Below, one piece after another: positions 12,686 through 36,703 of a stretch of 64,000 bases of DNA (the stretch's first letter is position 1; every line of letters starts with the position of its first letter). Under the pieces are notes generated by a model. It did not search any database, was not told where the DNA came from, and was given only the letters and a program-made list of their open reading frames with translations. A program made the position numbers and the translations under genes. Source of the stretch: Candidatus Latescibacterota bacterium (GTDB taxonomy: Bacteria; Latescibacterota; UBA2968); contig OZ242311.1 in the NCBI GenBank assembly GCA_965207885.1, forward strand, positions 5,920,001-5,984,000, in the 5' to 3' direction.

Positions 12686-12848
12686 CGTACTTCACCACCT
12701 TTCTACATCGAAAATTGCACATCAGAACGAAAAAAGGCAAGAATCAGAAGTTTCGATTCTTGCCATACCGTCTTTTCAGGCCGATTGTACAGGAAACAAA
12801 ACAACACATTCTTAACACATGGGCACAAATACCCATTATACAAGGGCA

Positions 12849-12903: not shown

Positions 12904-15900
12904 TTATACTGTAGCCCCGGCGAGCATCATCTGTCCTTTTTCCGTGTACTGCGCTTTATCTTCTGGCGCCACGGTGCGCCAGATCAGGAATTGTTTGCGC
13001 AGCGCGTTCATAAAGTTCTGGTTGACTCGCCGCCATGACGAGGCATCGCCCGAGAGCCGATCTATGGTCAATGCCATGGCAAAAATATTGTGCTCACCTG
13101 TGGGTAAAGCTTCAAAATGCACCTGCTGGCTTACGCCGAGATCATAAGGTGCCAGCCAGATTGTTGTGTCAATTGTATGTCCCTGTCCGGTTTCGGTTTC
13201 AATCGCGCCAAACCGCGCGCCATCGGTGTAAAATGTGCCCAGGCTCTCTCCTGCATGTGCCTGGAAATAATCGACGAGAAATACGGAAAGGCCAAATACG
13301 TCTTTGCCGCCTACGGTAAACGGAAATTCAAAATGCCAGCGGTCACCTTCAGGCTCGGGGAATTTCCAGCGGCGCGTTACGTCGGGGACAGCCATCATGG
13401 ATGCCTGACGCGCGGGATAGAGCGACGATAGCAAAACCACGAGCATGACCAGCATGGAGGAGGTCACGGTCGAGAGCGCCGAATAGTTCACGGTAAGCCC
13501 TTGCAGGGCATCTTGCCACAGTAAAATTTTGACGACGCTTTGTCCCAAAAGATATCCGGCAACGGTTCCCAAAACAGCGTAAACACATGCTTCGGCGATA
13601 AATAAGAAGGCGATGTGTACAGGCGCTAATCCCACGGAGGAATAGATGCCGATTTCGCGGAAGCGCTCGTACACCGATCCCATCATGGTATTGAGTACGA
13701 TCAGTGCGGCGACCAGAATGGGGATGAACAGATTGGCCATGCCTTGCATAGACGTATCGCCCAGGGAACTGTAAACCGCGACGCGTATGCCGCCATCTGC
13801 TGTTGGGATGCCGGCGAATAATACGACTGATAACCGCGACAAAAATGATTTGATCTCGGCTTCTACATCCACTTCTTCTTGAAATCGCACGGCTACGGAC
13901 TGCAGTGGGCTGCCCACATCGCGCAACAGAGCATAGGATACGATCAGCGTATCATCGGGGTCCAGATGCTCAAATGGCACGGTATCGACTTCGGGGCGCT
14001 CCAGGCCCTGCCGTTCGCGGGTCTCGGTCTGCGACATGGCGGTGATAAATTCATCTTCGGTGACTTGAAAATCTGCCGGCGTTATCTGTTCTTCATCCAG
14101 ATCGACAAATCGACGCATTTTTTCAGAGTTGATCAATCCAATTACTGTGAGTTGCTTGCCAAAGAGGCGAATGTGCGCTTTGCCGACGTCTTGTTCTGTG
14201 ATATCCAGGAGTTCCGCTATTCGGTCGGGCAAAATACAGGCTGACTCGCCCGGTTGAAACCAGCGTCCGATCCGCAGCAGGGTATCGACCTGCGTCACCT
14301 GGGCTTCTTCTGGCGCCAGTCCCAGGATCCCCTGGACGCGAGAATTTTTCTCTCCATAACGCACCACGGCTTTTGATTTTTTGTCTTCTCTTGTCGCAAT
14401 ATACCAGCTTCGAGGTGTTACGGTGCCTCTGTCTTTGAAATTTATCCGCGCATAATCATAAGCTGTGTCTTCCAGTGGTCCCCAGAATTTGCTTCTGATC
14501 AGTATGCCGGGATATGGGCCTTCCACATCGCGGTGAAGCTGGTGAAATTCCAGTGCCGATTTGATAGAGGTAAAGGACAGCACAGTAAAGGTGAGGAGTA
14601 CCAGGGTTGCAAATGTTAGCCATGTGCGCATTTTGCGCTTTTTCATGTTGGCAATGCCCAGTTGAAATGCCGCTACGGATGCGCTGATTCGCCCCACGTC
14701 GGTTTCGTGCAATAATACCTCGGCGCTGCGGAGTCGCCGGATGTTTTCGTTGAACCGGCCCGATAGAATCGAGATGACAAAGATCGCCAGGGCCAGGATG
14801 ACAAAAGCGAGTAAGATTACAAATGGATTGGAGAGGTCAAATGCGGGGTGTACCTGTGAGAGGAATATCCAGATGACGACAAAGACCGCGCCGATCCCGC
14901 CGATTTGCATGCGAATATCGGAAAAGGTAAAGAGCAACCGCTCGAGGAAAAACGCACAGGGGATGACCAGGAGCATGAAGAAAATTACGCCGCGGATGAC
15001 GTCGTTTTGCGTTGTCTTTACGTCTGGATATGCCCGCGATTCAATGCCCATCCCCGCGCGCGTGTGTTTTACAAAGGCATCCCATTGTTTTTCTCGCAGT
15101 GCGGTTTCTGCTTCGTCTAAATGTTGTTTGGCCTGCGCGTGCAATACTTCCAGTCGCTGATTTTCAATTGAGTACTGGCGCAGTTTTCGCATGCGCGACT
15201 CGTTCAACATCCACATATCTCGCGCCGCCTGATAGGGCGTGCGGATTAAGGATCCCGATGACAGGGTTTGAAATCCCTCGCCCCGGGCATCCCACTCGTT
15301 ATCCGCGCTTTTTGAGTTGAGTAGCAAATAGCGCACGCCGATTGCGCCTGCGCGCATTGCTATTTTTACTTTTTCTCCGGGGGATGTATAGACCACGCCG
15401 ACGGGTTCGTCTGGTCCGAACCCGATGTCATAACCGTATTCTTGCGGTGCGGTATTGCCCACCCCATAGACGCTGATGTTGGATAAGGTGTTCAAATACC
15501 GGGGATCGACTGTGCCGTAGAAATCGGTTGCCACGCAGGGGAACAGGATGACGGTTTGTTTTGTGATCCACCAGTTCATATTAAAATGGCCGCTATAGAT
15601 TTTTCCCTGCCGTCCCTGGTTGGGCGCGTACGTGATTTCGCCGCTGTGCGGGTCGATATAGTACGCCCGCACGTGTACGCGGCGCTCTGCTACGCCCGGA
15701 ATATAGTATTCGCCGTTTTCATCTGCGAGGTCGTAGTAAATGCGCCGCACGCCTTTGATTGATTTTTCCAGGCCCATGCGCATGGCGGCTATTGCACCTG
15801 GTCGCGATTTATCGGGTGTGATACTGCGCCGAGGAAATGTGCGTACATATCCTTTGAGGCCGCGCATGCGGTCGATGGGATCCAGTTTGTAATCGGGCAA

Positions 15901-17430
15901 AAATTCCCCGTCGTTGAACGATAGATCCAGCATGCCCGCGAGTACGCGAATCTGTTTGGTCAGGTTGGCGTAGTTTATATACTCGGCCCGGTCCAGAGGG
16001 GTATCTACCCTGAATCGCGCGTCGTTCACGGTTGACAATGAGAGTGCGGGGGTGCCCGCATAGAGTACGACTTCGCTGTCGCTTTTGATATTTTCACCGG
16101 GGATGTACATGTCCCAGGTCATGCCGCCTTTGGGGTTGATCCCATCGACCATGACGTCTTTTGACGGCACGCCCATGCCTTCGGCAATGGCGGTTGCATA
16201 GCGTACAAAGGATTTGCTAAATGTGGCAAAAAATCGCGTGGAGAAATAATTGACCGCGGTGTTGACGCCAAACCCGGCGGTCTGGGTGGATACGCCCATT
16301 TCATCTGTCTGGCTGGAGAGGTCCAATCCGATGAACAGGTCGATGTCGATGGGTTCGGTCATGAGCGCGGCAAAGTGCTTTTCTTTGCGCGAGTGCCGGT
16401 TCAGAAAATCGCATATACCCCGGAATCCCAGGTGGTGTGCGGACGATGCGAGGAAGAGGACGGTGTATTTGGGGCGATGTGCTTGAAAATATTCGGCCAG
16501 GCGCATGAGTGCGACGATGCCACACGCCATTTCAGCGCCGGGTGCCTGTGCGGGTACGACAGACATGGCGTCGTAGTAGGCGTTGATGACGACGATTTTT
16601 TTGCTCATTACTGGATCCGATCCTTCGATCCAGCCCAATACGTTGGCTGCGTCGTTTTTCTTCCAGGGCATGCGGGATTCGAGTTGTACTTCTATTTCGC
16701 CCTGGTCTGATAGGAGCGCGCGCAATTTTTCTCCGTTTTCGCGGTCGATCCAGTATCGCTCTACGCTGTTGGGTACTTGCAAAAATTTTGTTTCGGCCTG
16801 TGTATAGGATGTGGTATCTGGCGCGATGAAGATGATTTGTTTTGCGCCGAGAACTGCGGCGTTGAGCCATTTGTTCCAGGTGTTGAAGTTCAGGAGGACG
16901 ACGGTGTTTTCCACTTCTTTGCCGTCATAAGCTTTAAATTCGCCGTCGCCTCCGTCGATCAGGCGCGTTCGCACGCCGCCCGGTGGTAAGGTGGAGGTTT
17001 TTACCAGGTTTGGCCATAGTCCGGATAGCGGAAAGACTTCGCCGGATGAGACGATGGTTAATTGGCTGCCTTCATCTACAGGTGAAGTTACGCCGTAGGT
17101 TTCTGTTTCTACATTTTTTAAGCCGAGTGCTCGGAAGCGTTGTTCGATAAATTGTGCGGCGGCATCGTGGCCCGGATAGCCCGGTACGCGGGATTTATAC
17201 TGGGTAAAGGTCGCCATTAATGCGCGCACTTCTGCTTCTGTGATTTTGCGTTTTACGCGGTCTGCCACGACTTCGGCTCCCGGCACTGGGGCTGGTTCTA
17301 CGGGTTCGGGTGTTTGCAATCCCAGCACATTACGTAGCAACGGGTCAACCGTATCGGGTCCTGAGATGACCGCGCCAAACCCAAATACAGCAATCCCGAT
17401 CAATGCCAACCATCCGATGCGACGATACAT
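12904..17430 (-). CDS. Large membrane protein: M28 peptidase-like/PA domain fused to FtsX-like permease
   Basis: SRVPGYPGHDAAAQFI..RFRALGL, VINAYYD...APGAE; multiple TM blocks; FtsX signature SVYERFREIGIYSSVG..P.HIAFLFIAEA; likely start MYRRIGW. Confidence 0.8.
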   Translation of the reverse strand: MYRRIGWLALIGIAVFGFGAVISGPDTVDPLLRNVLGLQTPEPVEPAPVPGAEVVADRVKRKITEAEVRALMATFTQYKSRVPGYPGHDAAAQFIEQRFRALGLKNVETETYGVTSPVDEGSQLTIVSSGEVFPLSGLWPNLVKTSTLPPGGVRTRLIDGGDGEFKAYDGKEVENTVVLLNFNTWNKWLNAAVLGAKQIIFIAPDTTSYTQAETKFLQVPNSVERYWIDRENGEKLRALLSDQGEIEVQLESRMPWKKNDAANVLGWIEGSDPVMSKKIVVINAYYDAMSVVPAQAPGAEMACGIVALMRLAEYFQAHRPKYTVLFLASSAHHLGFRGICDFLNRHSRKEKHFAALMTEPIDIDLFIGLDLSSQTDEMGVSTQTAGFGVNTAVNYFSTRFFATFSKSFVRYATAIAEGMGVPSKDVMVDGINPKGGMTWDMYIPGENIKSDSEVVLYAGTPALSLSTVNDARFRVDTPLDRAEYINYANLTKQIRVLAGMLDLSFNDGEFLPDYKLDPIDRMRGLKGYVRTFPRRSITPDKSRPGAIAAMRMGLEKSIKGVRRIYYDLADENGEYYIPGVAERRVHVRAYYIDPHSGEITYAPNQGRQGKIYSGHFNMNWWITKQTVILFPCVATDFYGTVDPRYLNTLSNISVYGVGNTAPQEYGYDIGFGPDEPVGVVYTSPGEKVKIAMRAGAIGVRYLLLNSKSADNEWDARGEGFQTLSSGSLIRTPYQAARDMWMLNESRMRKLRQYSIENQRLEVLHAQAKQHLDEAETALREKQWDAFVKHTRAGMGIESRAYPDVKTTQNDVIRGVIFFMLLVIPCAFFLERLLFTFSDIRMQIGGIGAVFVVIWIFLSQVHPAFDLSNPFVILLAFVILALAIFVISILSGRFNENIRRLRSAEVLLHETDVGRISASVAAFQLGIANMKKRKMRTWLTFATLVLLTFTVLSFTSIKSALEFHQLHRDVEGPYPGILIRSKFWGPLEDTAYDYARINFKDRGTVTPRSWYIATREDKKSKAVVRYGEKNSRVQGILGLAPEEAQVTQVDTLLRIGRWFQPGESACILPDRIAELLDITEQDVGKAHIRLFGKQLTVIGLINSEKMRRFVDLDEEQITPADFQVTEDEFITAMSQTETRERQGLERPEVDTVPFEHLDPDDTLIVSYALLRDVGSPLQSVAVRFQEEVDVEAEIKSFLSRLSVVLFAGIPTADGGIRVAVYSSLGDTSMQGMANLFIPILVAALIVLNTMMGSVYERFREIGIYSSVGLAPVHIAFLFIAEACVYAVLGTVAGYLLGQSVVKILLWQDALQGLTVNYSALSTVTSSMLVMLVVLLSSLYPARQASMMAVPDVTRRWKFPEPEGDRWHFEFPFTVGGKDVFGLSVFLVDYFQAHAGESLGTFYTDGARFGAIETETGQGHTIDTTIWLAPYDLGVSQQVHFEALPTGEHNIFAMALTIDRLSGDASSWRRVNQNFMNALRKQFLIWRTVAPEDKAQYTEKGQMMLAGATV

Positions 17431-17639
17431 GGAGGGTCCTTTCAAAGAGATCGTACAATCCAAAAATCAAATGCTATCATACATAAAAAGACAACTTCTT
17501 CCAAATAAAATTAAGGCTACTAACCTTTATAAAAAAGGCAGGCGAGGTCGCGGTTTGATGATCCGTGCGAACAAGTCTGCCTTATTTACCAACGTCTGAG
17601 ATTATTCCTCAGAACCCGGCTACTGGTTTGAGTGCGTCC

Positions 17640-18041
17640 CTATGGCACCATTGTAGATATAGCCGCAGTTTGCGGCTCTGTATTGATATTGTCATCTGAA
17701 AAGCTTACAACGTTAAAGGTTTCTGGATCAAATTCTGACTCTCGGCGAACTAACTCGCTGAATGAGACAAATTGAACGAGTAGTCCCACATCAAATGCAG
17801 CACAAAGTTTGTGCAATATTTGTACTGATGGTGGGCCACTATCAGGGTCCTCCAATTCGGCTATATGGCTCTCGGGAATGCCACTGTACTTTGCAAGATC
17901 CGCTTGTGTCCACCCTCTCGCCCTCCGAAGTGCTCGGATTTGGAAAGGTACTTCAATATCAAACTGTCCCTCGACGTAACCTTCCCGATATTCCTTATCT
18001 TGCAGTTCTTCCCAAAGTTCAGAGCTTGAATTCAAGTTCAT
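17640..18041 (-). CDS. XRE-family HTH antitoxin (HigA-like)
   Basis: QIRALRRARGWTQADLAKYSG...IAELED...SVQILHKLCAAFDV. Confidence 0.85.
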   Translation of the reverse strand: MNLNSSSELWEELQDKEYREGYVEGQFDIEVPFQIRALRRARGWTQADLAKYSGIPESHIAELEDPDSGPPSVQILHKLCAAFDVGLLVQFVSFSELVRRESEFDPETFNVVSFSDDNINTEPQTAAISTMVP

Positions 18042-18384
18042 GAGCTTCTCCTCTTTGTATTTCGGAGTGACGTGTTACCGCTGTCTTATATGCGTTTGGT
18101 GGTTTATATATGTTGTCTTTATGAGTAAAACCACACAAAAATATTACTCGTCTTAACGATGGAAAGTAACAGAATATTCGGTGTGGTACGCGGTGTTCAC
18201 CGGGCCAACGCGCTTCGTGCAGTGCTTGAAATTTGTCAAAGTAAGGTCTTTGAGGTTGAGTAAGTTGTTTTACAATACGCAAAAACCGTTTAAGGCGCGA
18301 TTTGTTGTTCGGAGATAATCTCTGATACCAATCAGAGACAGGAAGCCGACCGTTTTTACTTTGATATTCTTGGAAATACCACAC
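18019..18384 (-). CDS. RelE/ParE-like (Gp49/HigB-type) toxin
   Basis: YQSKNGRLPVSDWY..L, LHEARW, HRIFCYF, IFLCGFTHK; overlaps the downstream HTH gene. Confidence 0.8.
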   Translation of the reverse strand: MWYFQEYQSKNGRLPVSDWYQRLSPNNKSRLKRFLRIVKQLTQPQRPYFDKFQALHEARWPGEHRVPHRIFCYFPSLRRVIFLCGFTHKDNIYKPPNAYKTAVTRHSEIQRGEAHELEFKL

Positions 18385-18519
18385 ATCTATCCCTCTTCAC
18401 AAGCCCACAAGTGTATAAAGTAAAATTAAACGATGACAAGATGACATAAATTAGCCAAGCGCATATCTGAAAGCAAGGGAATAAATCTCGACGGGATATA
18501 GATACAGCAATAGTTTCGT

Positions 18520-20505
18520 TCAATACCATTTGTGAACGGTGTGTCCCTGGGGCATGAACCATATTGCATCTACGATGAGGCCCAGTGCGGTTGACAGAAC
18601 ATAAGCCACGAGCATGCCGATGAAAAACGGCTTTGAGCGGCGGTAAAAGGGTGCTCCGCCAATGCGCAATAATGTGAATTTGATGAGCCAGGCGACAAAG
18701 ATGGTGAAGCTGGTGAGGCGGGCGAGTCCGGTGCCCGATAGGGCGAGACCAATGGGGTGCAGGGGCCACCAGGTGAATTGGTATCGCAGGAATAACAGGG
18801 CGTACATGGCAAATGCGCCGATGAGAAAGAACCAGTAGTCGATCTCTTCCATCGGCTGTGGCGATATGATCGCGTTGACGGAATTTTGATATCCGCCTAT
18901 GCCCGCGCGAATGATGAGCCAGTTTGGCGAGAAATTGTATCCGCCAATGCGATAGCCCAGCCAGATTGTAAAGAGGGTGGATGAGACGATGCCGACCACA
19001 AAAGCCACGCAGAGGCCGCCGAAGAGGGGGCGTTTGTTGCCGGAGATGAAGTCGGACAGGCGGTTGAGGTGCGTGCCCACGGAAAAGGTAAATCCGCGGA
19101 AGTGATCGATGGCGACAGATGCCGGATAGATCATGGCATGAGACGCCGCTGGAATGGCGCGGGCACCGCCCAGAAGCGCGGTTGTCAGTGTCCAGGCTGT
19201 AGATGGTGCCTTGACGTAAATAAGTCCGGAATCGGCCAGGATTTTCGATACGGCACCATAGGACAAAAACATGAATGGCAACAGGATGGCGAGGACTTTC
19301 CACGCCATGCCCGCTGCGGATAACCAGACCAGTGCGTAGGCGACTGAAGCGGCGAGATAGCAGAAGGCTGCGCGATAGGATATGAGTTCTCGGCTGTCGT
19401 CTATGTGCTCGCTTTTTGGATGGAGCGCTTTTTGAAATGCCTCTTTCAGATGCGCCCGTGCTATCCACACCCACCACAGAGATAGGGCGACAAATGCGCC
19501 CGTTGTTTGCCAGAGGTAGCGTTTGGAGGCGTAGTAGCGGTTAAAGGCTGTTATGCCCAGTTGGTCGAGGATGCCGGATTCTACGATGAATATGAGATCA
19601 AAGAGCCACATGCTGAACAATAATTCCAGGCTCGCAAAATACGAAAAGCATATTCCCACGGTGCTTATGAATACCCACTGCGGCGGAAAGTTCCTGCCAA
19701 TGGGCACCCAGGTGCCGGCGGCGGTTGGAAATTTTGGCAGCGCGGGATGAAACCACGCGATGATGTTCCAGACGAATATCACGCCCACCACGCCAAATCC
19801 AGTCCAGAACATTCGTCCCTGCATAAACTCGGGCAAATAGGTCCGTCCCGTGCCCGGCTGTGTGGTCAGTTCGACGATGGGTTCCATGGCGGGATAGACC
19901 AGTTTTTCGTATTCCGCCCATTGTTTGCGCATGATGACCGAGGCACAAAAACAGGCGAGTGCTATGGCACATACAAAGGTGAACCACCAGAAGAGGGGAC
20001 CGAGCCAGGCGGTCCAGGGTACGGGTGCGCCAGCGGGCAAGCCATCGTAGAACCAGTTCATTGCGCCGTCGCGATTGGACGGTATGATCCATTCGGGCAG
20101 GTGCGGGTGTAAAAACTCTGCCCACCGGTTTTCGGGCGAGGAAAAATAGTAGGGAGTTACGATGACGCCGACCAGATATCCGCTTACGCCATAGGTGGGA
20201 CCGAGCGAACAGATAAAGCCCATTGAAAAGATCGCGAGCCATTCGCTCGGGGAAAAGGCAAAGCGTTTGCCAAAGTACCGCGCGAGCACACTGCAGACGA
20301 TCAAACACAGCAGTGTGAGCATCAGATTGCCCATGGGCATGTGGCTGTATGCCATGAAGGAGCTGTGCATGATATATCGCGCGACTGTCGCCAGTGCGTT
20401 GATTGTAACAACCAGCACAAGCCCAAAGATTAGCGATCGGACTGTAACACCTTTGTTCGCAGGATCTGGCGAATCTGCGATTGGATATGTTTGTTGTGCG
20501 GTCAT
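18520..20505 (-). CDS. DUF6785/DUF6784 family polytopic membrane protein (OPT-like putative transporter)
   Basis: VTVRSLIFGL, PENRW, RKQWAEYEKLVYP, WWPLHPIG, PFFIG; many TM segments; start MTAQQ. Confidence 0.8.
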   Translation of the reverse strand: MTAQQTYPIADSPDPANKGVTVRSLIFGLVLVVTINALATVARYIMHSSFMAYSHMPMGNLMLTLLCLIVCSVLARYFGKRFAFSPSEWLAIFSMGFICSLGPTYGVSGYLVGVIVTPYYFSSPENRWAEFLHPHLPEWIIPSNRDGAMNWFYDGLPAGAPVPWTAWLGPLFWWFTFVCAIALACFCASVIMRKQWAEYEKLVYPAMEPIVELTTQPGTGRTYLPEFMQGRMFWTGFGVVGVIFVWNIIAWFHPALPKFPTAAGTWVPIGRNFPPQWVFISTVGICFSYFASLELLFSMWLFDLIFIVESGILDQLGITAFNRYYASKRYLWQTTGAFVALSLWWVWIARAHLKEAFQKALHPKSEHIDDSRELISYRAAFCYLAASVAYALVWLSAAGMAWKVLAILLPFMFLSYGAVSKILADSGLIYVKAPSTAWTLTTALLGGARAIPAASHAMIYPASVAIDHFRGFTFSVGTHLNRLSDFISGNKRPLFGGLCVAFVVGIVSSTLFTIWLGYRIGGYNFSPNWLIIRAGIGGYQNSVNAIISPQPMEEIDYWFFLIGAFAMYALLFLRYQFTWWPLHPIGLALSGTGLARLTSFTIFVAWLIKFTLLRIGGAPFYRRSKPFFIGMLVAYVLSTALGLIVDAIWFMPQGHTVHKWY

Positions 20506-20514
20506 AAAAGGAGG

Positions 20515-20674
20515 GTGAGAAGTGAGACGTAAGACGTGAGAAGCGATGGTCTTCAGTAACAAAGCCGTCATCGCGGTATGGTGTTGAGCCGCGATCCAGA
20601 GGGGTGGTGTAGGGGGGCGTCTTATCCCGTATAAAAGCACTACGGGACAGGCTCTTTTACGTCTTACCTCTTAC
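20515..20674. repeat. Composite intergenic element: inverted 7-mer tandem arms enclosing 33-bp palindrome copy 3 (20567-20599) and second-family palindrome (20627-20656)
   Basis: GTGAGAA/GTGAGAC/GTAAGAC left arm ... TTTTACGTCTTACCTCTTAC right arm. Confidence 0.8.
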
Positions 20675-23006
20675 TAATTCGGAATATGCCTTCCCGAGTA
20701 GCGGTCTGGGCGCTGTTGAGGTCTTTTACTGTCATGAGCAAGCGATACCGCCCGGGTTCAACGCGGCCGATGTCCAGTTCGACGTAGTCGGCGATCCAGA
20801 GTTCGCGGCCCGTTTGTTCGTATTGTACGGTGATGAGTTCCCCGTCTCTTCGCCTTATTCTGGGTTGCGAGGCGAGTTCGCGGCCCTTTTCCGGTGCTAC
20901 GGCAAAGGCGACTTCGTAGCGCGTTTGCCCAAAGGTGTCTCGCGTCAGGTTGTAAATTTCAAAATAGACGAAGATGGGCGTGCCCGGGAAAAAGGTGCGG
21001 GACGGCGATGTGGTGATGCGCCATTTGTCGCGCGCAGTCAAGGTGTCGGTCTGGTTCTGGGGTACGGAAGTCGGTTCTTCAATATGCTGTGCGATTTGTA
21101 GATCGCTGAGCATCAAGCTGTCACCGGAAAAGTCGTGCAGGCGGACTTTTTCCCGATAATTGCCCAGGCGGTTGGTGTGAATTCGCCACATTTGTACGGC
21201 GAGGTCGTATTCGCCGGGGGATAGGGGGATGTCGATGCGGTCTCTGGCGATCAGGCTTTTTCCGCGGAGTCCGGGGGGAAGGGGTATGGCGACATCTTCC
21301 CGCAGGCGTTTTGCTTCGCGATTCTGATCATCTACGAGGGCGATGCGACGTTCGACTACGACTGTGGTGTCCGGGTCGGTGGATATCGCCACTTCGTCTA
21401 TTGGGAGGCCGATGTTGATCTGGAGGTCTGTTTTGCCATTTTTCCCGCGGAACGACAGGGCCTCGTAATAGAAATTGAGGGGATCGAGGTCGGATGTGTC
21501 GTAGCGTTCGGGTTTTTTGGCCGCTGCTGCTGCGACTTGCGATGCGGGCGAGAAGTCGTTCATGAGTCGGAGGAATCTGAGTGGGGACCCGCGGGAAGCG
21601 ACGTCATAAGCGTCTTCTCTGTCGATGGTTGGGACGGGTGCGTAGTTGTAGATATTGGTGTGCATTTCGTCGGTGAATACGACTTCTATCCCGTGGTTGA
21701 TGTCGGGATAGATCCACACTTCCCAGGGTACGCTGGAGAAATCGTTTCCGGCTGTGACGGGTTTCCACCCGCGCAAGCCAAGGGTGCCGTCGTCTTCTTC
21801 GAGCGGGAGATTGCTTTCGACATTTCGAAGCGCGATGCGGATGGGGAATACGGGTCCGGTGTAGGTCGCGGTTGTGCCGGGGCGACCGTAGAGTTGAAAT
21901 GCCAGTTTTTCCTGTATGCGTTGCACGGGGATCGGTATGCTGGCGTTTGGTTCACGCCAGGTGGAGCGGTAGTCCGGTTCGCCGTATCGGATATAGATTT
22001 CGCCCCGCTGGTCAAAGGGGTATTTGTAACGCCCGAAGAAGGTTCGCGCATGCCAGACGCGGCGGTAGTGTTCTGCGCGTCTCTGGCTTCCTCCGGTTGT
22101 GCCAAAGGGGTCTTTGCGGATCCAGAAGGCGTTCAGAAAGGCATCTACATCTTCGTCTGAGATCGCGCGATACGATGCGATTTCTTCCGGGGTGGCGATC
22201 AGGGATATATCTTCATAGATTGCTTTTTCCTGTGGCGACAGCATTTCCAGATATTTTTGAAATACGGATAGGGCGTCTTCATAACGCCGCGAGGCCAGTA
22301 GCACTTGCGCCAATAGCGGAAGTCTTCGCGCATCGGCCATGTGCGCGGCGATTTGAGTCACGATGTTGTAGCGTTTTTCGGTCAAGAATTCAAGGGCAAA
22401 TTCAAGTGCGGGCGTTTCGTCTTGTGCGCCGTGAGACAGGTAGGTGTTGTAGTGGGATAGTGCCCGGAAGGTGTCGCCTTTTTTGCGATAAAGACGCGCC
22501 AGCAGCAGGTGGGCGGGACCATAGCGGGGGTTGATTTGCAGTGCTTTGTCGGCCGCTTGCAGGGCGTCTTTTTCTTTCCCGCGCGCCAGATAGATTCTGC
22601 CGAGGACTTCGTGGCTTTCAGCGCGGTTGGAGTCGGCCTGTATCGCCTTTTCGAGGTGGGAGGTCGCGCGTTTGAGTTTGTTGCGATATTCCAGAAGTAC
22701 GCGTCCCATTCCCAGGTGGCTCTCTCCCTGGTGCGGGTCGTTTTTCAGGGCGCGAACAAATGCGGCTTCTGCGCTGTCGGGCAGTTGGAGTCGGAGATAG
22801 AGATGGCCGATACGGGCGAGTAGCAGGGTGGAGTCCGCAGAACTCGGCACGGCATGGTTCAGTGTTTTGAGTGCTTCTCTGATCAGGGTTTTTCGTCCGA
22901 GTGCCTGGGCTTTGAGATATACGGCGTCCAGGTCCGTGTCTTCGGCGGCGGCATGTCCGATAAAGCAGAAAAGTAAAAGAAAATATGTCCAATGGCGAAT
23001 ATTCAT
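20664..23006 (-). CDS. Exported TPR + GWxTD-domain protein
   Basis: Signal peptide, TPRs, FWIRKDP...EHYRRVWHA..FF..PFDQRGEIYIRYGEPD, WEVWIY, SDLQIA, YFEIYNL. Confidence 0.85.
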   Translation of the reverse strand: MNIRHWTYFLLLFCFIGHAAAEDTDLDAVYLKAQALGRKTLIREALKTLNHAVPSSADSTLLLARIGHLYLRLQLPDSAEAAFVRALKNDPHQGESHLGMGRVLLEYRNKLKRATSHLEKAIQADSNRAESHEVLGRIYLARGKEKDALQAADKALQINPRYGPAHLLLARLYRKKGDTFRALSHYNTYLSHGAQDETPALEFALEFLTEKRYNIVTQIAAHMADARRLPLLAQVLLASRRYEDALSVFQKYLEMLSPQEKAIYEDISLIATPEEIASYRAISDEDVDAFLNAFWIRKDPFGTTGGSQRRAEHYRRVWHARTFFGRYKYPFDQRGEIYIRYGEPDYRSTWREPNASIPIPVQRIQEKLAFQLYGRPGTTATYTGPVFPIRIALRNVESNLPLEEDDGTLGLRGWKPVTAGNDFSSVPWEVWIYPDINHGIEVVFTDEMHTNIYNYAPVPTIDREDAYDVASRGSPLRFLRLMNDFSPASQVAAAAAKKPERYDTSDLDPLNFYYEALSFRGKNGKTDLQINIGLPIDEVAISTDPDTTVVVERRIALVDDQNREAKRLREDVAIPLPPGLRGKSLIARDRIDIPLSPGEYDLAVQMWRIHTNRLGNYREKVRLHDFSGDSLMLSDLQIAQHIEEPTSVPQNQTDTLTARDKWRITTSPSRTFFPGTPIFVYFEIYNLTRDTFGQTRYEVAFAVAPEKGRELASQPRIRRRDGELITVQYEQTGRELWIADYVELDIGRVEPGRYRLLMTVKDLNSAQTATREGIFRISKR

Positions 23007-23013
23007 AAGTATC

Positions 23014-26000
23014 TCATTGCGCTACCACAAAGAGGGCATTTTTAGAGGCGGTCTGTTCGCTGTTCAAATCGGTTATCACGACTTCCAGTGCGTAGCGTCC
23101 CGGTTCGCGGTCGCCCAATTCCAATTCTGTATAGACGGTTTCCAGGTTCATTGTTCCGACCTGTTCATATCCCAGTAACACTTTTTCTCGTTTGCCGCCG
23201 AGCGTTCTCACCAGGCGAGATACGGCACCGCCCACGCCTTTGCCTTTTGGGGCGATCGTGTATTCTACCTGGTATCTGGTCTGACCGAATTCATCGCGTT
23301 TTAGATTGTAGATTTCGTAATAGACAAAGATGCTCTGTCCTTTTGGGTAAGTTCGCGTGGGCATGGGCACGACGTGCAACTCGCCTTTGCGGAATTTGTC
23401 CTGGGGGCCGCCCTCTGCGACGCGCCAGGCCAGTTCCAGGTCGCTCACTTTCATTGAGCGGGTCTGATATTTCTCCAGTTCGATTATCTGGCGATACCGC
23501 CCCTGCCGCCCAGACAGGCGGTCCAGCAGATGTACTTCCAGCTTGTAATATCCCGGCGGGGCGTCCAGGCGCACGACATCGGGGATAAAGGCGCCCTGTA
23601 TGCCGGTTTGATCGCCTGCATTGCGATATCGCACATCGCCTGTGCGTCGATACACATCGCCGGTTTGTTCGTTTAAGAGGGATACGGTTCGCTCTACGAC
23701 CATCTCGGTGGTATTGTTTTCGGCGAAGTACCGCCCCAGTGTCTGCGGGATTCCGGTATAGACTTCCAGCGCGCTTACGTCATTTTGGAGGCTCTGAAAA
23801 TCCGCGAGGTCGTAATAGAATTCCAGGGGACGGGTGTTTTCCGGGGTTGCGTAATAATCCGGCGTTACCCGAGCGGCAAATTCGGTGACTCTGCGGGGAT
23901 TGTACCGGTTGAGTAGAGCCAGTGTGCGGATGGGGATGTTGGGATCCAGAGGCGCGGGCGCGTAGTCGAAACTGCCGGTCATTGCTTCGTCGGTGAAGGT
24001 TATTTCGATGCCCCCGTTCACATCGGTATAGATCCAGGTCTCCCACCGCACCATAGAGGCGTCTTCCGGAACGGAGACCGCGTTGAAATCCGGCTGGAGA
24101 TTAAAAAATTCACTGCCCATATTCCCGGCGTTGACGACTGTATTCGCCCGCCGTTCGTAAGTGCTGATGTCTTCTCCGGTCTGGTCATCGGCTGTTGCCT
24201 GTGCCGAACGCACGGTGCGCTGTTCTTCGCCTCCCGACTCGAGTCCCTGTCGCTCCCGTTCCTGTGATTGTTCGATGGCCTGCTGCATGGATGCGTCCTC
24301 GCGTTGCATACTGATTGGGGTTGCACCACTTAGTCTGGTTTGAAGTCCTCGCACGGGATATACCGGGCCAAAATAAGTCTGTTGTGCGGCTTCGCCACCA
24401 AATAGCGTTTGGGCAACGCGCTCTTTTACCCGCTGTACTGATAGGCTTTGTTGCAAGTTTAACATGTTGGATCGCGACCGATAGTCAGGCTCTCCGAAGC
24501 GGATATAGACCTCGCCGCGCCGGTCAAAGGGCTTTTTCCCTTCTGAGAAATTTGTCAGGGCATACCATACCCGTCTGTAGTGCTCCAGTTTGCGTTCGTT
24601 GGTCGCGGTGATCAAATTTGGATCTTTTAGTGCCCAGAACTGTCGCAAATATGACGAACGCGCCGCGTCTGTGTCGAGGCTGTTGTATTCTTCGAGTTCT
24701 TCGACGGATGCGAGGAATCGGATGTCTTCGTATAGTGCGCGGTGTTGCGGATCCAGGTACGCCACATAGCGGGAAAAATAGGTTTGTGCCCAGTTCGGAC
24801 GCTTCAGTTCGAGACACGCCTGCGCCAGGATGGGCAGGGATGTTATTTCTTCGGGGTACTCGCGGATGTGATCTTCCAGCAATTGGACGATGCGGTCGAA
24901 GTTTTTGCTTCGCAAATAGGCTCTTGAGAGCAACTCTCTGCCTTCCGGGTCTTCGGGCGCGAGTGTTATATAGCGGGCATAGGCCATGGCCGCCTGTTCG
25001 TAGTCTTCTTCCTGTTCTTCCCACCATTTGCCCAGCAGTTTGTAGGTCGGCGCGTAGGTCGGGTCCAGTGCGATGACGTGGTCGAGGTCGCGTTTGGTGT
25101 CGTACTCTTTGAGCTTATATCGCGTCTGCGCCATGTTAAAGCGGGCATCGCGGTGAATATTGTATAGCTGCGATAGCCGTTCATCTGGAGGCCACTGCAA
25201 GGCTCTTCTGAAATAGCGGATGGCATTGTACAGGCCTTTAGGGCGATTTTGGAAGACGAGCCCCAGTCCGTTGTACGCCTCGGACAAGCGGTGGTCGAGG
25301 TCAATGGCGCGCTCAAAAGCGTTTCGCGCGCGGTCGTAATTCTCTACCTCTAAATAGGCATAGCCCAGGAGGCAATGTCCGAGTTTCAGATCGGGCGCGA
25401 CGTGGGTGAGTGCGGTGAGTATTGGTACGGCGAGGGTGTCGTTTTGCGATAGGAGGGTTTTGCCCATTTCTACGAGTGAATCTATTTGTGTTTTTCCAAT
25501 GGGACGGTCCTGTACGCGATAGTTTTCGGTGTGTCGAACCAGTTCTACGAGGCGACCGGGGTAGAAATAGCTCACGACAATGGCTTCACCTGTAGCGGCG
25601 TTGGGTCTGTAGAAATAGCTGATGGGCCGCGTGTTGTCCCGATCTGCGGGTGCGCGAAACAGGCGGGCAATGGTCCCGGGATCTGCCCGGGATTGATCAA
25701 CAGTCCATTTTTGAAGCGCGGACAGTTGGTCGGGCATTTTCCCGCGATGGTCGCGGCGATATGCGGTTAGTAGTCTGGAGATTGCGGTGAGGTGGTCGCG
25801 GCAAACCCAGCGGGATCCATTTTTTCGAATTTCTTGCGCGGCGCTTTGAAATGCGTGCACGTAGTCCTGCATGGGGGATTTGGATAGGCCGCTTTTCGCG
25901 GATTGTCTGGCCAGTGTTTCAAAATGGCGCGCTGCCTGGTTGTAATAAGCGGCGGCTTGTTTGAACTCCCAGCGCGAGAGGCTCAGTTGCGCCAGGCGCA

Positions 26001-26514
26001 CGGCGTTGAAACCCGATGTCAGGGTGGGTAGGTCGTTTTTGCCAATAGCGGGGGCGGTCGGTTTTAATCCTTTTATCGCTTTTTCAGTGGTCCAGATAAT
26101 GGATTCCAGGTCCGGATCATCTATTATGAGGATATCGCGTCCCGATGACGTCAGTTCCCAGTATCGGGATGGGGCAAGGGAGATGGTGTGTCCCCGATGC
26201 AAGATGTCGCCAGGTGCGGGCAATAATAGGGGGATGGATTGGTAGATGATGGTTCCGGTTTCAGTTTTTCCCAGTTGACCTGGTCGCCCGGGGAAAATAC
26301 CGAGACACTGTTCCCGTTCCGCACCGTCGGTCCACAGCTCTGTCAGTGCGATGCCGCTCAGCTCTCGAGAGTAGGTCCACACCTGACTGGTCGCTCCAGT
26401 GCGGAGGATTAAGTCCTCCTGGGCGTCTGCGGTGCTCCAGAGCGCGATAGCCATGAGCAATGCGTATCTGAATGTTGGGGAAGTGAACACGGTATGTTTC
26501 CTCAAGGGGTACAC
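23014..26514 (-). CDS. Exported TPR + GWxTD-domain protein with an extra N-terminal module
   Basis: FWALKDP...NERKLEHYRRVWYA...PFDRRGEVYIRFGEPD, WETWIY, SDLELA, YYEIYNL. Confidence 0.85.
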   Translation of the reverse strand: MYPLRKHTVFTSPTFRYALLMAIALWSTADAQEDLILRTGATSQVWTYSRELSGIALTELWTDGAEREQCLGIFPGRPGQLGKTETGTIIYQSIPLLLPAPGDILHRGHTISLAPSRYWELTSSGRDILIIDDPDLESIIWTTEKAIKGLKPTAPAIGKNDLPTLTSGFNAVRLAQLSLSRWEFKQAAAYYNQAARHFETLARQSAKSGLSKSPMQDYVHAFQSAAQEIRKNGSRWVCRDHLTAISRLLTAYRRDHRGKMPDQLSALQKWTVDQSRADPGTIARLFRAPADRDNTRPISYFYRPNAATGEAIVVSYFYPGRLVELVRHTENYRVQDRPIGKTQIDSLVEMGKTLLSQNDTLAVPILTALTHVAPDLKLGHCLLGYAYLEVENYDRARNAFERAIDLDHRLSEAYNGLGLVFQNRPKGLYNAIRYFRRALQWPPDERLSQLYNIHRDARFNMAQTRYKLKEYDTKRDLDHVIALDPTYAPTYKLLGKWWEEQEEDYEQAAMAYARYITLAPEDPEGRELLSRAYLRSKNFDRIVQLLEDHIREYPEEITSLPILAQACLELKRPNWAQTYFSRYVAYLDPQHRALYEDIRFLASVEELEEYNSLDTDAARSSYLRQFWALKDPNLITATNERKLEHYRRVWYALTNFSEGKKPFDRRGEVYIRFGEPDYRSRSNMLNLQQSLSVQRVKERVAQTLFGGEAAQQTYFGPVYPVRGLQTRLSGATPISMQREDASMQQAIEQSQERERQGLESGGEEQRTVRSAQATADDQTGEDISTYERRANTVVNAGNMGSEFFNLQPDFNAVSVPEDASMVRWETWIYTDVNGGIEITFTDEAMTGSFDYAPAPLDPNIPIRTLALLNRYNPRRVTEFAARVTPDYYATPENTRPLEFYYDLADFQSLQNDVSALEVYTGIPQTLGRYFAENNTTEMVVERTVSLLNEQTGDVYRRTGDVRYRNAGDQTGIQGAFIPDVVRLDAPPGYYKLEVHLLDRLSGRQGRYRQIIELEKYQTRSMKVSDLELAWRVAEGGPQDKFRKGELHVVPMPTRTYPKGQSIFVYYEIYNLKRDEFGQTRYQVEYTIAPKGKGVGGAVSRLVRTLGGKREKVLLGYEQVGTMNLETVYTELELGDREPGRYALEVVITDLNSEQTASKNALFVVAQ

Positions 26515-26517
26515 CGT

Positions 26518-27936
26518 TCAATGCAGTTTGCGAAAAGCAGTCCAGCATACGCGCAATAGCAAAAAGCCGTGCCGAAAGCGGTGGATCTGCGTGGTTCCGT
26601 ACACCCGATCCCGATAGCGCACCGGTACTTCTGCGATTTTGCGGACCAGTTTGGACGCGCCGAGGAGGAGGTCGAAGTCGCCAAAGGGGTCAAAATCGCA
26701 TACGTCTCGACGCGCTCTGGCCAATTTTTTGTAGTCCAGGGCGAACAGGACTTTGGTGCCGCACAGGGTATCTATAATGCGTTGCCCCAATAGGCAGCTC
26801 AATACCCAGCCGAAGAACCGGTTGCCCAGAAGGTTCAGGAATCGCATGGCTTGTTGTTCCATGGGATACACGAGGCGAGATCCCACGGCGAGTTCGGCGC
26901 GGCCAGATACGAGGGCGTCGAAGAATTTGGGCAAGTCTTCTGGGGCGACGGTTAAATCGCCGTCCAGGATCATCAATATATCGCCTCTGGCTGCGTCAAA
27001 TCCCCGTCGTACGGCGTCTCCTTTGCCGGTTCCCGTTTGTCGGATCAGGCGGATGTCTGTTCCCCTATATACCGCTATGCATCGCTCGACTTCTTCGGCT
27101 GTGCCGTCTGTTGAATGTCCCACGACAAAGATTAGTTCTGTATGCGCTCCCATCACAGGTGTGCGCGCTATTGCGGCTTCTACTGTGCCGCGCTCGTTTT
27201 TGCAGGGTATTATTACCGAGCAAGAGACTGAGGATGCTTCCCGCGCAGGGAAGACGGGACGCGCGACGAGTGTTTGTATGAGACACAGGCGTCTCAGTCC
27301 CGGCACTCTCGACAGGAAGCGATTTGCAAGATAGGCGAGTAGCGGTACGCGGCGGGGCAAGAGCAGGCGGCTTTCTCGTCGTATTTCTTCAAAGTTTGAT
27401 AGATAAAGTAAATTCTGAATGTCCCGGTGTGTCAACCAGTTTTGTACGGGTTCGGGCATTTTTAAGCGAAATATTTCCGCGGTTTTTAGTACGGGTTTCC
27501 ACAGGGGATTGTAGTGCGTGATCAGGACGCGGGAGTTGGGTAGTACGACTTTCCACAATTCGCTGAATACGCGCTGGATGTCCGGCAGGAAACCCAGCAG
27601 GTCCGATAGGATGATCCACTCGAATCGCTCTCCTTCGGGTAAATTCTCGGCGCGCCCCACGCGAAATTCGAGGTGGGGATATTTTTTGCGTGCGCGTTTT
27701 ATCATTGCTTCGCTGAAGTCAATGCCGAGTCCCCGCCCCGGTTTTAAGCCCGCGAGCAGGTCGCCGGTGCCGCATCCTATGATCAGGACGGACGATCCTT
27801 CGGGTATCGCGCAACGGCAAAATCGCAGGACTTCCTGGTGATAGGTGCGGTTGCGCCTGCGCCAATGGTCCCGGTTATCGGCGGCTTCGTCGAAAGCTTT
27901 CCGAATGACACGGCTATCGGGAAGGGGGGGTTTCAT
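26518..27936 (-). CDS. SAM-dependent methyltransferase / GT2 glycosyltransferase fusion (polyprenol-P-sugar synthase-like)
   Basis: VLIIGCGTG, GIDFS; SVIIPCKNE, GKGDAVR.G, ILDGD, DTLCGTK. Confidence 0.9.
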   Translation of the reverse strand: MKPPLPDSRVIRKAFDEAADNRDHWRRRNRTYHQEVLRFCRCAIPEGSSVLIIGCGTGDLLAGLKPGRGLGIDFSEAMIKRARKKYPHLEFRVGRAENLPEGERFEWIILSDLLGFLPDIQRVFSELWKVVLPNSRVLITHYNPLWKPVLKTAEIFRLKMPEPVQNWLTHRDIQNLLYLSNFEEIRRESRLLLPRRVPLLAYLANRFLSRVPGLRRLCLIQTLVARPVFPAREASSVSCSVIIPCKNERGTVEAAIARTPVMGAHTELIFVVGHSTDGTAEEVERCIAVYRGTDIRLIRQTGTGKGDAVRRGFDAARGDILMILDGDLTVAPEDLPKFFDALVSGRAELAVGSRLVYPMEQQAMRFLNLLGNRFFGWVLSCLLGQRIIDTLCGTKVLFALDYKKLARARRDVCDFDPFGDFDLLLGASKLVRKIAEVPVRYRDRVYGTTQIHRFRHGFLLLRVCWTAFRKLH

Positions 27937-29758: not shown

Positions 29759-29860
29759 TTTTTGTACAGAATACAAAGGGCGATTGCCAGGGTGCAACCC
29801 CGGCAGTCGCCCAAAAAGTGTACAAACTATGGTCATCGCAGAAGTTGCGATAGCCGCTCG

Positions 29861-30859
29861 TTAGAACGTGCCGCCTATTGATATGCGCAGGGGCGAGTCA
29901 AACAGGGCTATGCCGTCGATATCCTTCAGCAGCGAATAGGACACATCTACCACGAAGGTGCGTCCGCCTACTGTTTGCTTGACACCAGCGCCAAAGGCAA
30001 AGGACTCGAGATCGTAGTTCCACTTATAGCCCGCGCGCACAGCTACCAGGTTCTGGACCCAGAGTTCTGCGCCAAAGTGATAGCGTTGCTCGAAATCTAC
30101 GGGAAATACGCTCTCGGCCGCCAGCGTCAAATAGGTCGGATCGCCTTTTTCGCCATAAACTTCGGCGGCCAGGCCCATGTTGTAGGTCAGGGGCATCAGG
30201 TAGGAGAATGCCTCTTCCCTGGATTTCTGATCTGGTCCGAAGTTTTTGAACGACATTGCCACGCGCAGGCTTCTAAACCCGGTGTAGAAATGACTGCCCA
30301 GGTCTATGGTAAATGTGCTGGTTTTTTGCGTGTAGAGTTTTTCCTGCACATAGTTGGCTTTGGCACTGAACGAGAATTTGTCTGTGAATTTTATGGCGTA
30401 GAGCAAGCCCACCGCCATGTAGTTCACATCGACAAACTGACCCGTTCCACTCGGCTGGAAGATGGTGGTTTCTTCAATGGGTTCGACCTGCTGTGTGATC
30501 AGGCTGATACCCAGAACTTCACCTCGAGACGAGTGGGTGTTGAAGACGGCTGCCGCCGAATACAGTTCTGTGCCTGCCAGCCACTTGGTGTAATTGGCCT
30601 GATAGGCGAATTTTTCCACGTGGGTTAGCCCGGCGCCGTTCCAGAAGATGGCGTTGATATCATCGGCAATTGCCGTGTATGAATCACCCATCCCCACGGC
30701 ACGAGCACCCTGTCCGATTTTCAAAAACTGCATGCCTGCGATGTTGACCTTCTTGACCCCTTCGATCGCGGTTACGCCTTCATATTCAAGCCCCAGAGCG
30801 GGACTGGCGATCAGCAGCAGGCTCAGGAACGCTGTAAGTATGAGATTTTTCTGTTTCAC
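29861..30859 (-). CDS. PorV/PorQ-family (UPF0164) outer-membrane beta-barrel
   Basis: QFLKIGQGARAVGMGD, AIFWN.AGL, C-terminal ISIGGTF. Confidence 0.85.
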   Translation of the reverse strand: MKQKNLILTAFLSLLLIASPALGLEYEGVTAIEGVKKVNIAGMQFLKIGQGARAVGMGDSYTAIADDINAIFWNGAGLTHVEKFAYQANYTKWLAGTELYSAAAVFNTHSSRGEVLGISLITQQVEPIEETTIFQPSGTGQFVDVNYMAVGLLYAIKFTDKFSFSAKANYVQEKLYTQKTSTFTIDLGSHFYTGFRSLRVAMSFKNFGPDQKSREEAFSYLMPLTYNMGLAAEVYGEKGDPTYLTLAAESVFPVDFEQRYHFGAELWVQNLVAVRAGYKWNYDLESFAFGAGVKQTVGGRTFVVDVSYSLLKDIDGIALFDSPLRISIGGTF

Positions 30860-30877
30860 AATGAATACCTCCTTCGG

Positions 30878-33310: not shown

Positions 33311-33331
33311 ATTGTTCCTCGCCCTCCTTAA

Positions 33332-33420
33332 TGCCTGCCTGTGCCTGCCAAGGATTCACTGGCAGGCAGGGGTTTCGGAAAGGGTATGCGAGTGGGCACA
33401 AGACCCACTCGCACAACCCG
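33332..33420 (-). terminator. Two intra-operon stem-loops (processing, stability or attenuation)
   Basis: CCTGCC..GGCAGG and TGCGAGTGGG..CCCACTCGCA hairpins between the receptor and cargo genes. Confidence 0.5.
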
Positions 33421-36675: not shown

Positions 36676-36703
36676 AGCACGACCTCCTTAAAGGGTGAAT
36701 GGG

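Follow-up and report, generated by a model that had tools for sequence, protein, structure and literature searches.

The window analysed here, a 64-kb stretch of contig OZ242311.1 from a Candidatus Latescibacterota bacterium, carries a gene for a very large membrane protein (hereafter the giant) together with a gene of the DUF6785 family on the same strand. We read the giant, at a probability of about 0.6, as the permease of a type VII adenosine triphosphate (ATP)-binding cassette (ABC) mechanotransducer of the MacB/LolCDE/FtsEX-like kind, which would have permeases of the DUF6785 and P814 families as partners, would be driven by a LolD/FtsE-like ATPase and would hold a repurposed pocket in its peptidase-like head. 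The genome to which the window belongs (the own genome, G000) has 6.2 Mb and 5161 called genes. The two genes in question are:

12904..17463, minus strand: the giant gene, a 1519-amino-acid (aa) open reading frame with a pseudo-M28 head and a MacB/FtsX-type permease
18520..20640 (probable start ATG 20505), minus strand: a polytopic permease with DUF6785 and DUF6784 (Pfam), member of the giant-linked clade described below

Together with two small genes that lie between them, they make four minus-strand genes in a row.

The C-terminal half of the giant has the layout expected of such a permease, with a first transmembrane (TM) helix, a periplasmic core and TM2-TM4 recognised by hydropathy, by the structure model and by the matches to 9o9x_C and 3ftj_A. 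TM1 comprises residues 949-967 and TM2-TM4 residues 1246-1348 (hydropathy and model). FtsX is matched by Pfam at residues 1246-1355 (55.6 bits, cut-off 25.5), MacB_PCD is matched under its cut-off of 27 at residues 1015-1132 (22 bits), and by sequence the giant aligns to MacB 5lil at E 3.5e-10. AlphaFold models were made in two pieces, on alignments of 51-52 sequences, with a predicted local distance difference test score (pLDDT) of 93.4 for the head and 87.0 for the C-terminal half. The latter is closest to YtrF 9o9x_C (Z 14.7) and to the MacB periplasmic domain 3ftj_A (Z 13.7, root-mean-square deviation (rmsd) 3.4, 178 aligned), followed by FtsX 8tzj_C (Z 12.9) and LolC 7arh_C (Z 12.0), with HrtB, LolE and YbbP also within Z 12-14.7. 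Between TM2 and TM3, a short helix (model residues 468-476) carries the motif ERFREIG at 1266, of which E1266, R1267, R1269 and E1270 are invariant in 14 sequences with identity down to 41%. In MacB, the helix at the same position is described as the major coupling helix, to which the ATPase passes on its movement (PMC5985334).

We compared 79 related loci, drawn from the 80 closest matches in a confirmed set of at least 584. They come from public Latescibacterota metagenome-assembled genomes (MAGs) and from MAGs labelled Gemmatimonadota; many of these genomes are near-identical, so that counts over this set are not independent. In 60 loci the upstream flank reaches 8 kb or more, and 15 of these have an ABC ATPase upstream on the same strand; one whole clade has the gene order ATPase, DUF6785, giant, P814. 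Three giant paralogs occur in the own genome, among them a 70%-identical one; paralog-2 and paralog-3 are names for members of this set. The ATPase of the paralog-2 locus has 273 aa, its best NCBIfam matches are LolD, DarD, DevA, FtsE, MacB and YbbA, all under the curated cut-offs, and its orthologs at other loci are 81-99% identical. Because sister loci carry a LolD/FtsE-like ATPase and the ERxREIG motif is invariant, an ATPase-free transporter appears unlikely; judged from these sequences, the giant is most likely the permease of a type VII ABC system that is driven by ATP through an ATPase supplied in trans. The copy in this window most likely uses an ATPase encoded elsewhere, the likeliest source being the gene at the paralogous locus (G000 3,581,059-3,581,880; L017:19060-19881).

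At two loci from small genomes of different families (L107, G016:C15, and L108, G011:C97; families f8 and f11), another arrangement is seen, in the order DUF6785, TPR, giant, P814, a 294-aa protein, a PqqD-like protein, a 228-aa FtsX-only protein and an ABC ATPase, which hints that a small FtsX protein may pair with the giant there.

The second line of evidence concerns DUF6785. The upstream gene matches DUF6785 (PF20581) along the whole model (308.3 bits, positions 1-498 of 498) and DUF6784 (PF20580) with 68.6 bits, both above the Pfam cut-offs. The genome contains 50 DUF6785 genes, so that mere chance might have placed one beside the giant; at 50 in 5161 called genes, this is expected in about 1% of cases. 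For 40 of the 69 full-length giants with enough flank, however, the next gene upstream is a DUF6785 gene in the same orientation, and in 7 more such a gene lies at positions -2 to -4. The adjacency spans four deep clades on the giant tree, and the 70%-identical paralog also has DUF6785 directly upstream. In a tree of the 50 own paralogs and 48 DUF6785 proteins from related loci, the giant-linked ones form one clade, which includes the gene of the window; only two own non-linked paralogs are nested in it, and there is one outlier. Moreover, in the P0137 cluster (56 members) the head, PCD, FtsX, DUF6785 and DUF6784 are found in one chain. Its full-length members, 2083-2120 aa long, occur on several contigs, no other cluster among the sequences examined has such a fusion, and one member is named "DUF6785 family protein" by NCBI. 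Synteny, a dedicated clade and a natural fusion thus argue that the giant is a real partner of DUF6785. The first-pass annotation, which had placed a DUF6785 gene upstream of the giant and proposed the two as working partners, is confirmed in the first point and supported in the second, and the genomic association on which it had made its proposal depend is far above the chance level. Fusion members include P0137 (2120 aa), P0292, P0296, P0298 and P0299; DUF6785 and DUF6784 form the C-terminal end of the chain, so that the order of the fused parts is the reverse of the usual gene order. Co-folding of DUF6785 (residues 46-706) with two TM pieces of the giant gave a score of 0.00, which, with the giant cut into two chains unlike in the calibration, speaks neither for nor against binding. 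Searching the PDB sequences with DUF6785 gave 0 hits for the single sequence and, for a 9-row profile, designed helical proteins at a best E of 0.3.

The most constant partner of the giant across the phylum is not DUF6785 but P814, a family that is absent from the window. P814 (P0273) is the family of the downstream neighbour of the giant at other loci, a polytopic membrane protein of ~810 aa (range ~660-960 aa) for which no Pfam or NCBIfam family was found. Its gene comes after that of the giant, almost always as the very next one: this is so at 43 of 70 related loci and, in a more distant set that covers 11 families, at 13 of 15. In a survey of 61 sampled genomes from 13 sampled families of the phylum, P814 was present in 47 genomes and the head of the giant in 48, with an identical pattern over families; a single genome, 57% complete, departs from the match, and both are missing from family f9 (0/13 for each). 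Both P814 copies of the own genome lie beside giants:

L017:4940-7384, minus strand (G000 3,566,939-3,569,383): P814 copy
L018:13694-15751, plus strand: P814 copy

When P814 was used as an alignment, hhalign related it to DUF6785 with a probability of 72% (E 3.5e-5, 365 columns), compared with 1.6% for a single P814 sequence, and at one locus (L118) a true DUF6785 occupies the downstream place of P814. By the profile comparison, P814 is probably a distant relative of DUF6785. Comparison of the loci indicates that the lineage of the window lost P814 and the ATPase and kept DUF6785. In a clade of 1512-aa giants that has no P814, a gene for a fused S-adenosylmethionine decarboxylase-spermidine synthase follows directly after the giant (L076:14524-15810 and equivalents).

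The third line of evidence is the head. After the anchor helix, the periplasmic region of the giant has ~785 residues, of which the first 460 take the M28 fold with an inserted PA domain. Pfam places Peptidase_M28 at residues 274-507, above the curated cut-off (35.1 bits against 21.3), and the model aligns with the Aeromonas aminopeptidase 1rtq_A (Z 29.7, rmsd 2.7 Å, 271 aligned), the PA-bearing 2ek8_A (Z 28.2, 390 aligned; Foldseek E 7.3e-24) and the transferrin receptor 7zqs_B (Z 26.9, 402 aligned), the last of which we take to be a membrane-anchored binding module without a metal site. The motifs AYYD at 295, GAEMACG at 309 and SAHHLG at 341 fall, in HMMER alignments to solved M28 enzymes, on GSHHDS, APGADDDASG and AAEEVGLRG, so that HHD is replaced by YYD, GADDDASG by GAE-MACG and AEE by AHH. 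The residues Y296, Y297, D298, E311, H343, H344, D381 and D487 of the head would then replace the canonical H-x-D, D, E-E, D and H; this ligand-by-ligand assignment leans on the HMMER alignments and on what we take to be the Aeromonas ligands (His, Asp, Glu, Asp and His, with a general-base Glu). Conservation was counted in an alignment of 100 sequences, namely the query and 99 cluster representatives (50% identity) from 150 listed, the other 51 being left out because their match to residues 256-520 spanned at most 150 positions:

Y296: 73 of 100 (H in 8)
Y297: 88 of 100
D298: 96 of 100
E311: 76 of 100 (D in 10)
H343: 99 of 100
position 344: variable (F in 46, H in 12 of 100)
D381: 96 of 100
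R483: 93 of 100
D487: 77 of 100
P489: 98 of 100
D491: 97 of 100

None of the 100 sequences has the full ligand set of the canonical co-catalytic site, and none has Glu at 343, the general-base position. By these alignments, the head is an M28-fold homolog and not a canonical peptidase, and its site is not a canonical two-zinc centre anywhere in the family examined. The site also appears to be repurposed and not simply dead, because D298, E311, H343, D381, D487 and D491 are 76-99% conserved, too conserved for a dead site. The first-pass annotation had described an M28-like fold without canonical metal ligands, followed by TM blocks and an FtsX domain, and all of this agrees with the Pfam, fold, hydropathy and alignment results: the quoted motifs are present, the fold comparison that it proposed, made with Foldseek and structure alignment, recovers the M28 head, and no homolog counted here keeps a complete zinc site. 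Of its wording "dead or repurposed peptidase", the second half is the one that the conserved replacements favour. A glutaminyl-cyclase-like single-zinc site was considered and set aside, as F/H344 and D487 stand where the Glu and His ligands of the cyclases would presumably match.

Taken as a mechanism, ATP binding by the LolD/FtsE-like ATPase would push the coupling helix of the giant, and the movement would run up the TM1/TM2 stalk to the periplasmic core and then, via the extra helices and the stalk, to the PA/M28 head. The acidic/His pocket of the head may hold or process a periplasmic or membrane-derived ligand, for which a DUF6785-type permease could offer a path across the inner membrane. 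The partners would be DUF6785/DUF6784 upstream and, in most lineages, P814 downstream. Import is favoured because DUF6785 paralogs sit in uptake loci; that the imported ligand is peptide-like or amine-bearing is a guess.

Several observations weigh against this reading. No ABC ATPase is encoded in the 64-kb window: none of the 94 Pfam PF00005 matches of the genome lies there, and a scan of the 43 called proteins and of all six reading frames with our own ABC profile, built from 24 ATPases of the genome, brought up none. The nearest ATPase matches are ~60 kb and ~84 kb from the giant gene, 45 of the 60 related loci have no ATPase in the 8-10 kb upstream, and no fused nucleotide-binding domain (NBD) was seen in any family sequence examined. 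The first-pass annotation had noted that no ABC ATPase lies nearby and had proposed ATPase co-occurrence as a check; the absence holds for the lineage of the window and fails for the sister lineages, where the LolD/FtsE-like ATPase is found in the 15 loci given above. DUF6785 linkage has its gaps too. The paralog-3-like clade is mostly without adjacent DUF6785, the third paralog of the own genome lacks one, and at 1 of 9 loci orthologous to that of the window no DUF6785 is seen at all; inserts between the two genes are variable, and therefore tight co-transcription is not required. As to the kind of permease, hhalign of DUF6785 and P814 against seven canonical OPT proteins of the phylum gave weak probabilities of 1.9% (418 co-linear columns) and 3.0% (38 columns). 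The neighbours beyond the core (the spermidine synthase fusion, bacterial microcompartment (BMC) shell proteins, an epimerase, an amidohydrolase, a formylglycine-generating enzyme (FGE)-sulfatase and TPR proteins) form no consistent pathway, and the near-identical genomes among the best 80 matches make the counts overstate their independence.

A bolder version of the proposal can be put forward tentatively. Perhaps the giant represents a composite class in which a type VII ABC system is obligatorily coupled to permeases of an OPT-like superfamily, and in one lineage fused to them, with the pseudo-peptidase acting, driven by ATP hydrolysis, as a periplasmic "loader" that feeds or empties a secondary-type channel, and with a core envelope function in the phylum. 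To our knowledge, no described ABC system divides the labour between an ABC engine and a secondary-type permease in this way. If the coupling is indeed physical, the system would allow the idea of an ABC engine that serves a secondary-type permease to be tested. The giant family also gives a first functional handle on P814 and on DUF6785/DUF6784, whose 50 copies here lie mostly in polysaccharide-utilisation-like loci.

The strongest competitor, which we consider unlikely, is an in-cis switch resembling FtsEX-EnvC. Here the head would be an active hydrolase or transferase with a non-canonical metal site (e.g. E311/D381/D487, with H343 as base), ATP-driven movements would switch it on to remodel the envelope, e.g. 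peptidoglycan peptides, and DUF6785/P814 would recycle the products. The replaced site residues are as conserved as those of an active site would be, the P0186 variant carries LysM and NMB0315_dom_I before M28, and presence in 12 of 13 sampled families, small genomes included, fits a housekeeping envelope role. The type VII systems FtsEX-EnvC and YbbAP-TesA are reported to control or feed periplasmic hydrolases (PMC7668044, PMC12646458). But the general-base Glu is missing from all 100 sequences, none of which has a full set of ligands, LysM was found in only 1 of 10 long variants scanned, and peptidoglycan genes do not recur in the neighbourhoods.

An export or assembly machine is more doubtful still. 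DUF6785/P814 would in this case flip or export an envelope precursor, which the giant would extract from the outer leaflet like LolCDE or MacB and hand outward to TPR, glycosyltransferase or outer-membrane parts. It draws on the neighbourhood, as the pair in the window comes last in a same-strand row of genes for a TonB-dependent receptor, a PorV-family protein, a PMT_2/TPR glycosyltransferase, a methyltransferase-GT2 protein and two large TPR proteins. Several distant loci have TPR genes immediately before the giant, and a gene for an HlyD-type adaptor is found upstream in 8 loci and at the paralog-2 locus. The characterised type VII systems are also described as acting outward (PMC5985334). 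However, the TPR, glycosyltransferase and HlyD neighbours are confined to particular lineages and do not accompany the giant through its family, and elsewhere DUF6785 paralogs occupy loci of an uptake type, among TonB receptors, sulfatases and catabolic enzymes. That the two genes are coincidental neighbours, with a giant that works alone or is a relic, is hardly credible: the 50 paralogs, the inserts between the genes here and the third paralog without DUF6785 could suggest it, but the 40 of 69 adjacencies against ~1% expected, the single giant-linked DUF6785 clade, the fusion protein, the intact frame with 87-98% identity in orthologs and the RNA-library contigs that cover the gene all stand against it.

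Returning to the type VII ABC reading, the giant can be set beside the known systems. Four of these are well understood, MacAB-TolC, LolCDE, FtsEX-EnvC and YbbAP-TesA, each of them serving a distinct envelope process. With the type VII family (MacB, LolCDE, FtsEX-EnvC, YbbAP-TesA, YtrEF), the giant shares the four-helix module, a periplasmic Porter/Sabre-type domain between TM1 and TM2, the elbow helix and ERxREIG, and its sister loci share a linked ATPase of the LolD/FtsE/MacB/YbbA type. FtsEX-EnvC and YbbAP-TesA are reported also to pair a permease with a periplasmic module of hydrolase fold. The giant differs in having this module fused in cis ahead of the permease and without a metal site, in four extra TM helices (the N-terminal anchor and three more) and a conserved 165-aa cytoplasmic tail after TM4, in the lack of a fused NBD, and in its permease partners of the DUF6785 superfamily, which, in the literature searched, no described type VII system has. 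The giant would thereby add a fifth architecture, an in-cis, zinc-site-stripped hydrolase-fold module with two uncharacterised permease families. A role as a substitute for LolCDE was set aside because the genome carries a separate set of two permeases and an ATPase near 2.08 Mb.

The PA-domain M28 aminopeptidases (Aneurinibacillus AP 2ek8, B. subtilis BSAP 6hc6 and P. aeruginosa PaAP) have the same fold with an inserted PA domain as the head, whereas the ligands of the giant are Y, E, H, (F/H) and D, conserved as such, a beta-rich domain and a stalk follow, and an ABC permease is covalently attached. ADOP proteins (TIGR03434) are also FtsX-domain permeases and are often encoded without an adjacent ATPase; the giant matches that model with 22 bits against a cut-off of 622 and differs from it by its single FtsX module, its M28 head and its other partners. 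The genome has 94 FtsX-domain matches, mostly in ADOP-like proteins of ~800 aa with two FtsX domains, and these form tandem arrays, e.g. at 480-500 kb and at 1.80-1.84 Mb.

The giant family is near-universal across the sampled phylum, being present in 12 of the 13 sampled families, small genomes included, and it comprises at least 2197 cluster representatives at E <=0.001 and at least 663 at <=1e-30 (50% identity clusters). The frame of the giant in the window is intact, with 87-98% identity to orthologs. We infer that its true start is probably the ATG at 17430, giving 1508 aa as in the closest homologs P0003-P0006. Eight TM helices are predicted by hydropathy scan and model, and the parts of the gene, from the N terminus, are:

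17362..17418, minus strand: N-terminal signal-anchor TM helix, residues 16-34 (hydropathy scan)
15904..17292, minus strand: PA-domain-bearing M28-fold head, residues ~58-520 (model with pLDDT 93.4, fold matches, alignments, column counts)
15004..15864, minus strand: beta-rich domain (~534-715) and three-helix stalk (~742-820) into the membrane (model secondary structure)
14764..15000, minus strand: three extra TM helices, residues 822-900 (hydropathy, model, alignment)
14563..14703, minus strand: cytoplasmic elbow helix and TM1 of the permease module, residues ~921-967 (hydropathy, model)
13729..14562, minus strand: MacB-like periplasmic core domain, residues 968-1245 (sub-cut-off Pfam MacB_PCD, 3ftj_A fold match)
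13399..13728, minus strand: FtsX domain with TM2-TM4, residues 1246-1355, ERxREIG at 1266 (Pfam FtsX, MacB 5lil match)
12907..13398, minus strand: cytoplasmic C-terminal alpha/beta domain, residues 1356-1519 (model, many invariant columns)
12736..12764, minus strand: terminator-like hairpin with an 11-bp stem and a T run, directly 3' of the gene (consensus scan only)

Within the extra TM helices, E841-R842 is invariant and an H872-P873-x-F875 motif is found. No fold match was obtained for the beta-rich domain, the stalk and the three extra TM helices, but the M28 and MacB domains filled the match lists. The C-terminal tail has borderline similarity to helix-grip/KA1-like folds (1vjh_A, Z 8.3, rmsd 3.2, 114 aligned; START/Aha1/KA1-like matches at Z ~8), which a common arrangement alone may explain. 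Longer variants of the giant exist, in which extra N-terminal modules are seen: LysM and NMB0315_dom_I ahead of M28 in P0186, and Big_5 Ig-like domains in P0149, P0162 and P0202 (2769-3053 aa). Contigs from RNA libraries that bear the labels sponge and coral metagenome match parts of both the giant and DUF6785. They attest that these sequences are present in the libraries and do not show that the genes are transcribed, singly or together.

Between DUF6785 and the giant, two small genes that overlap by 23 bases are inserted:

18019..18384, minus strand: small gene (121 aa) with a weak Gp49/HigB-like match (Gp49 16.7 bits, E 0.0077, under the cut-off of 23.9)
17640..18041, minus strand: Xre/HTH_3 antitoxin-like gene (133 aa; HTH_3 38.5 bits, Y4mF-family antitoxin model under its cut-off)

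The 121-aa protein has no NCBIfam hit and no PDB sequence hit. What had earlier been called a toxin-antitoxin (TA) cassette is thus supported in its antitoxin half through HTH_3 and only hinted at in its toxin half through the sub-cut-off Gp49 match. The insert (window 17565-18421) varies over the 9 orthologous loci, where the gap holds from zero to five genes, including TPR genes of ~800 aa, and the two small genes are thus a strain-variable insert that stands outside the system. Both are spanned, with no mismatch, by an 857-nt contig from an RNA library (X1 record 7); X5 has no cover there, which proves nothing.

The wider DUF6785 family is informative on function. At least eight paralogs of the genome end a block composed of a TonB-dependent receptor (CarboxypepD_reg and Plug), a ~750-aa protein of no family, a PorV/FadL-like protein and DUF6785, often followed by sulfatases, an MFS transporter and a phosphotriesterase, and other paralogs adjoin mannonate dehydratase, enolase-superfamily, amidase and TPR genes. 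This place suggests an inner-membrane nutrient importer, and the blocks resemble polysaccharide-utilisation loci, of which they may be a Latescibacterota version in which DUF6785 serves as permease of the inner membrane. The window itself, at 29861-37417 (minus strand) and 45927-47915 (plus strand), holds one such block, of 237, 1084, 810 and 332 aa, as well as another DUF6785 gene. Upstream of the DUF6785 gene that neighbours the giant, two large TPR proteins are encoded (20664-26514 and 26518-29836, both minus strand), one of them with a GWxTD domain and more than 30 paralogs in the genome; a methyltransferase-GT2 fusion and a PMT_2/TPR glycosyltransferase follow further upstream, and similar TPR/PMT_2 genes flank other DUF6785 paralogs.

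The label OPT-like, attached to the DUF6785 protein in the first-pass annotation, can be kept as a lead for DUF6785 and P814. Both resemble OPT proteins (PF03169) in size and polytopic build, 11% of one archaeal DUF6785 Atlas cluster carries PF03169, and P0334, a P814 homolog, is named "OPT/YSL family transporter" by NCBI; the hhalign matches reported above are low in probability, though co-linear. Neither the DUF6785 nor the P814 protein matches PF03169 in Pfam. Canonical OPT genes were detected in 18 of the 61 sampled phylum genomes, and none was found in the own genome. In the literature, a search that left most subscription journals outside its reach found no account of DUF6785, DUF6784, Latescibacteria FtsX or an M28-FtsX fusion permease.

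Finally, outside the window the own genome has an apparent inverted duplication of at least 56 kb with 95-99.5% identity (G000 10,001-66,064 and 5,831,814-5,882,831), which may be real or an effect of assembly; each copy carries a DUF6785 gene, ABC ATPases and FtsX permeases.

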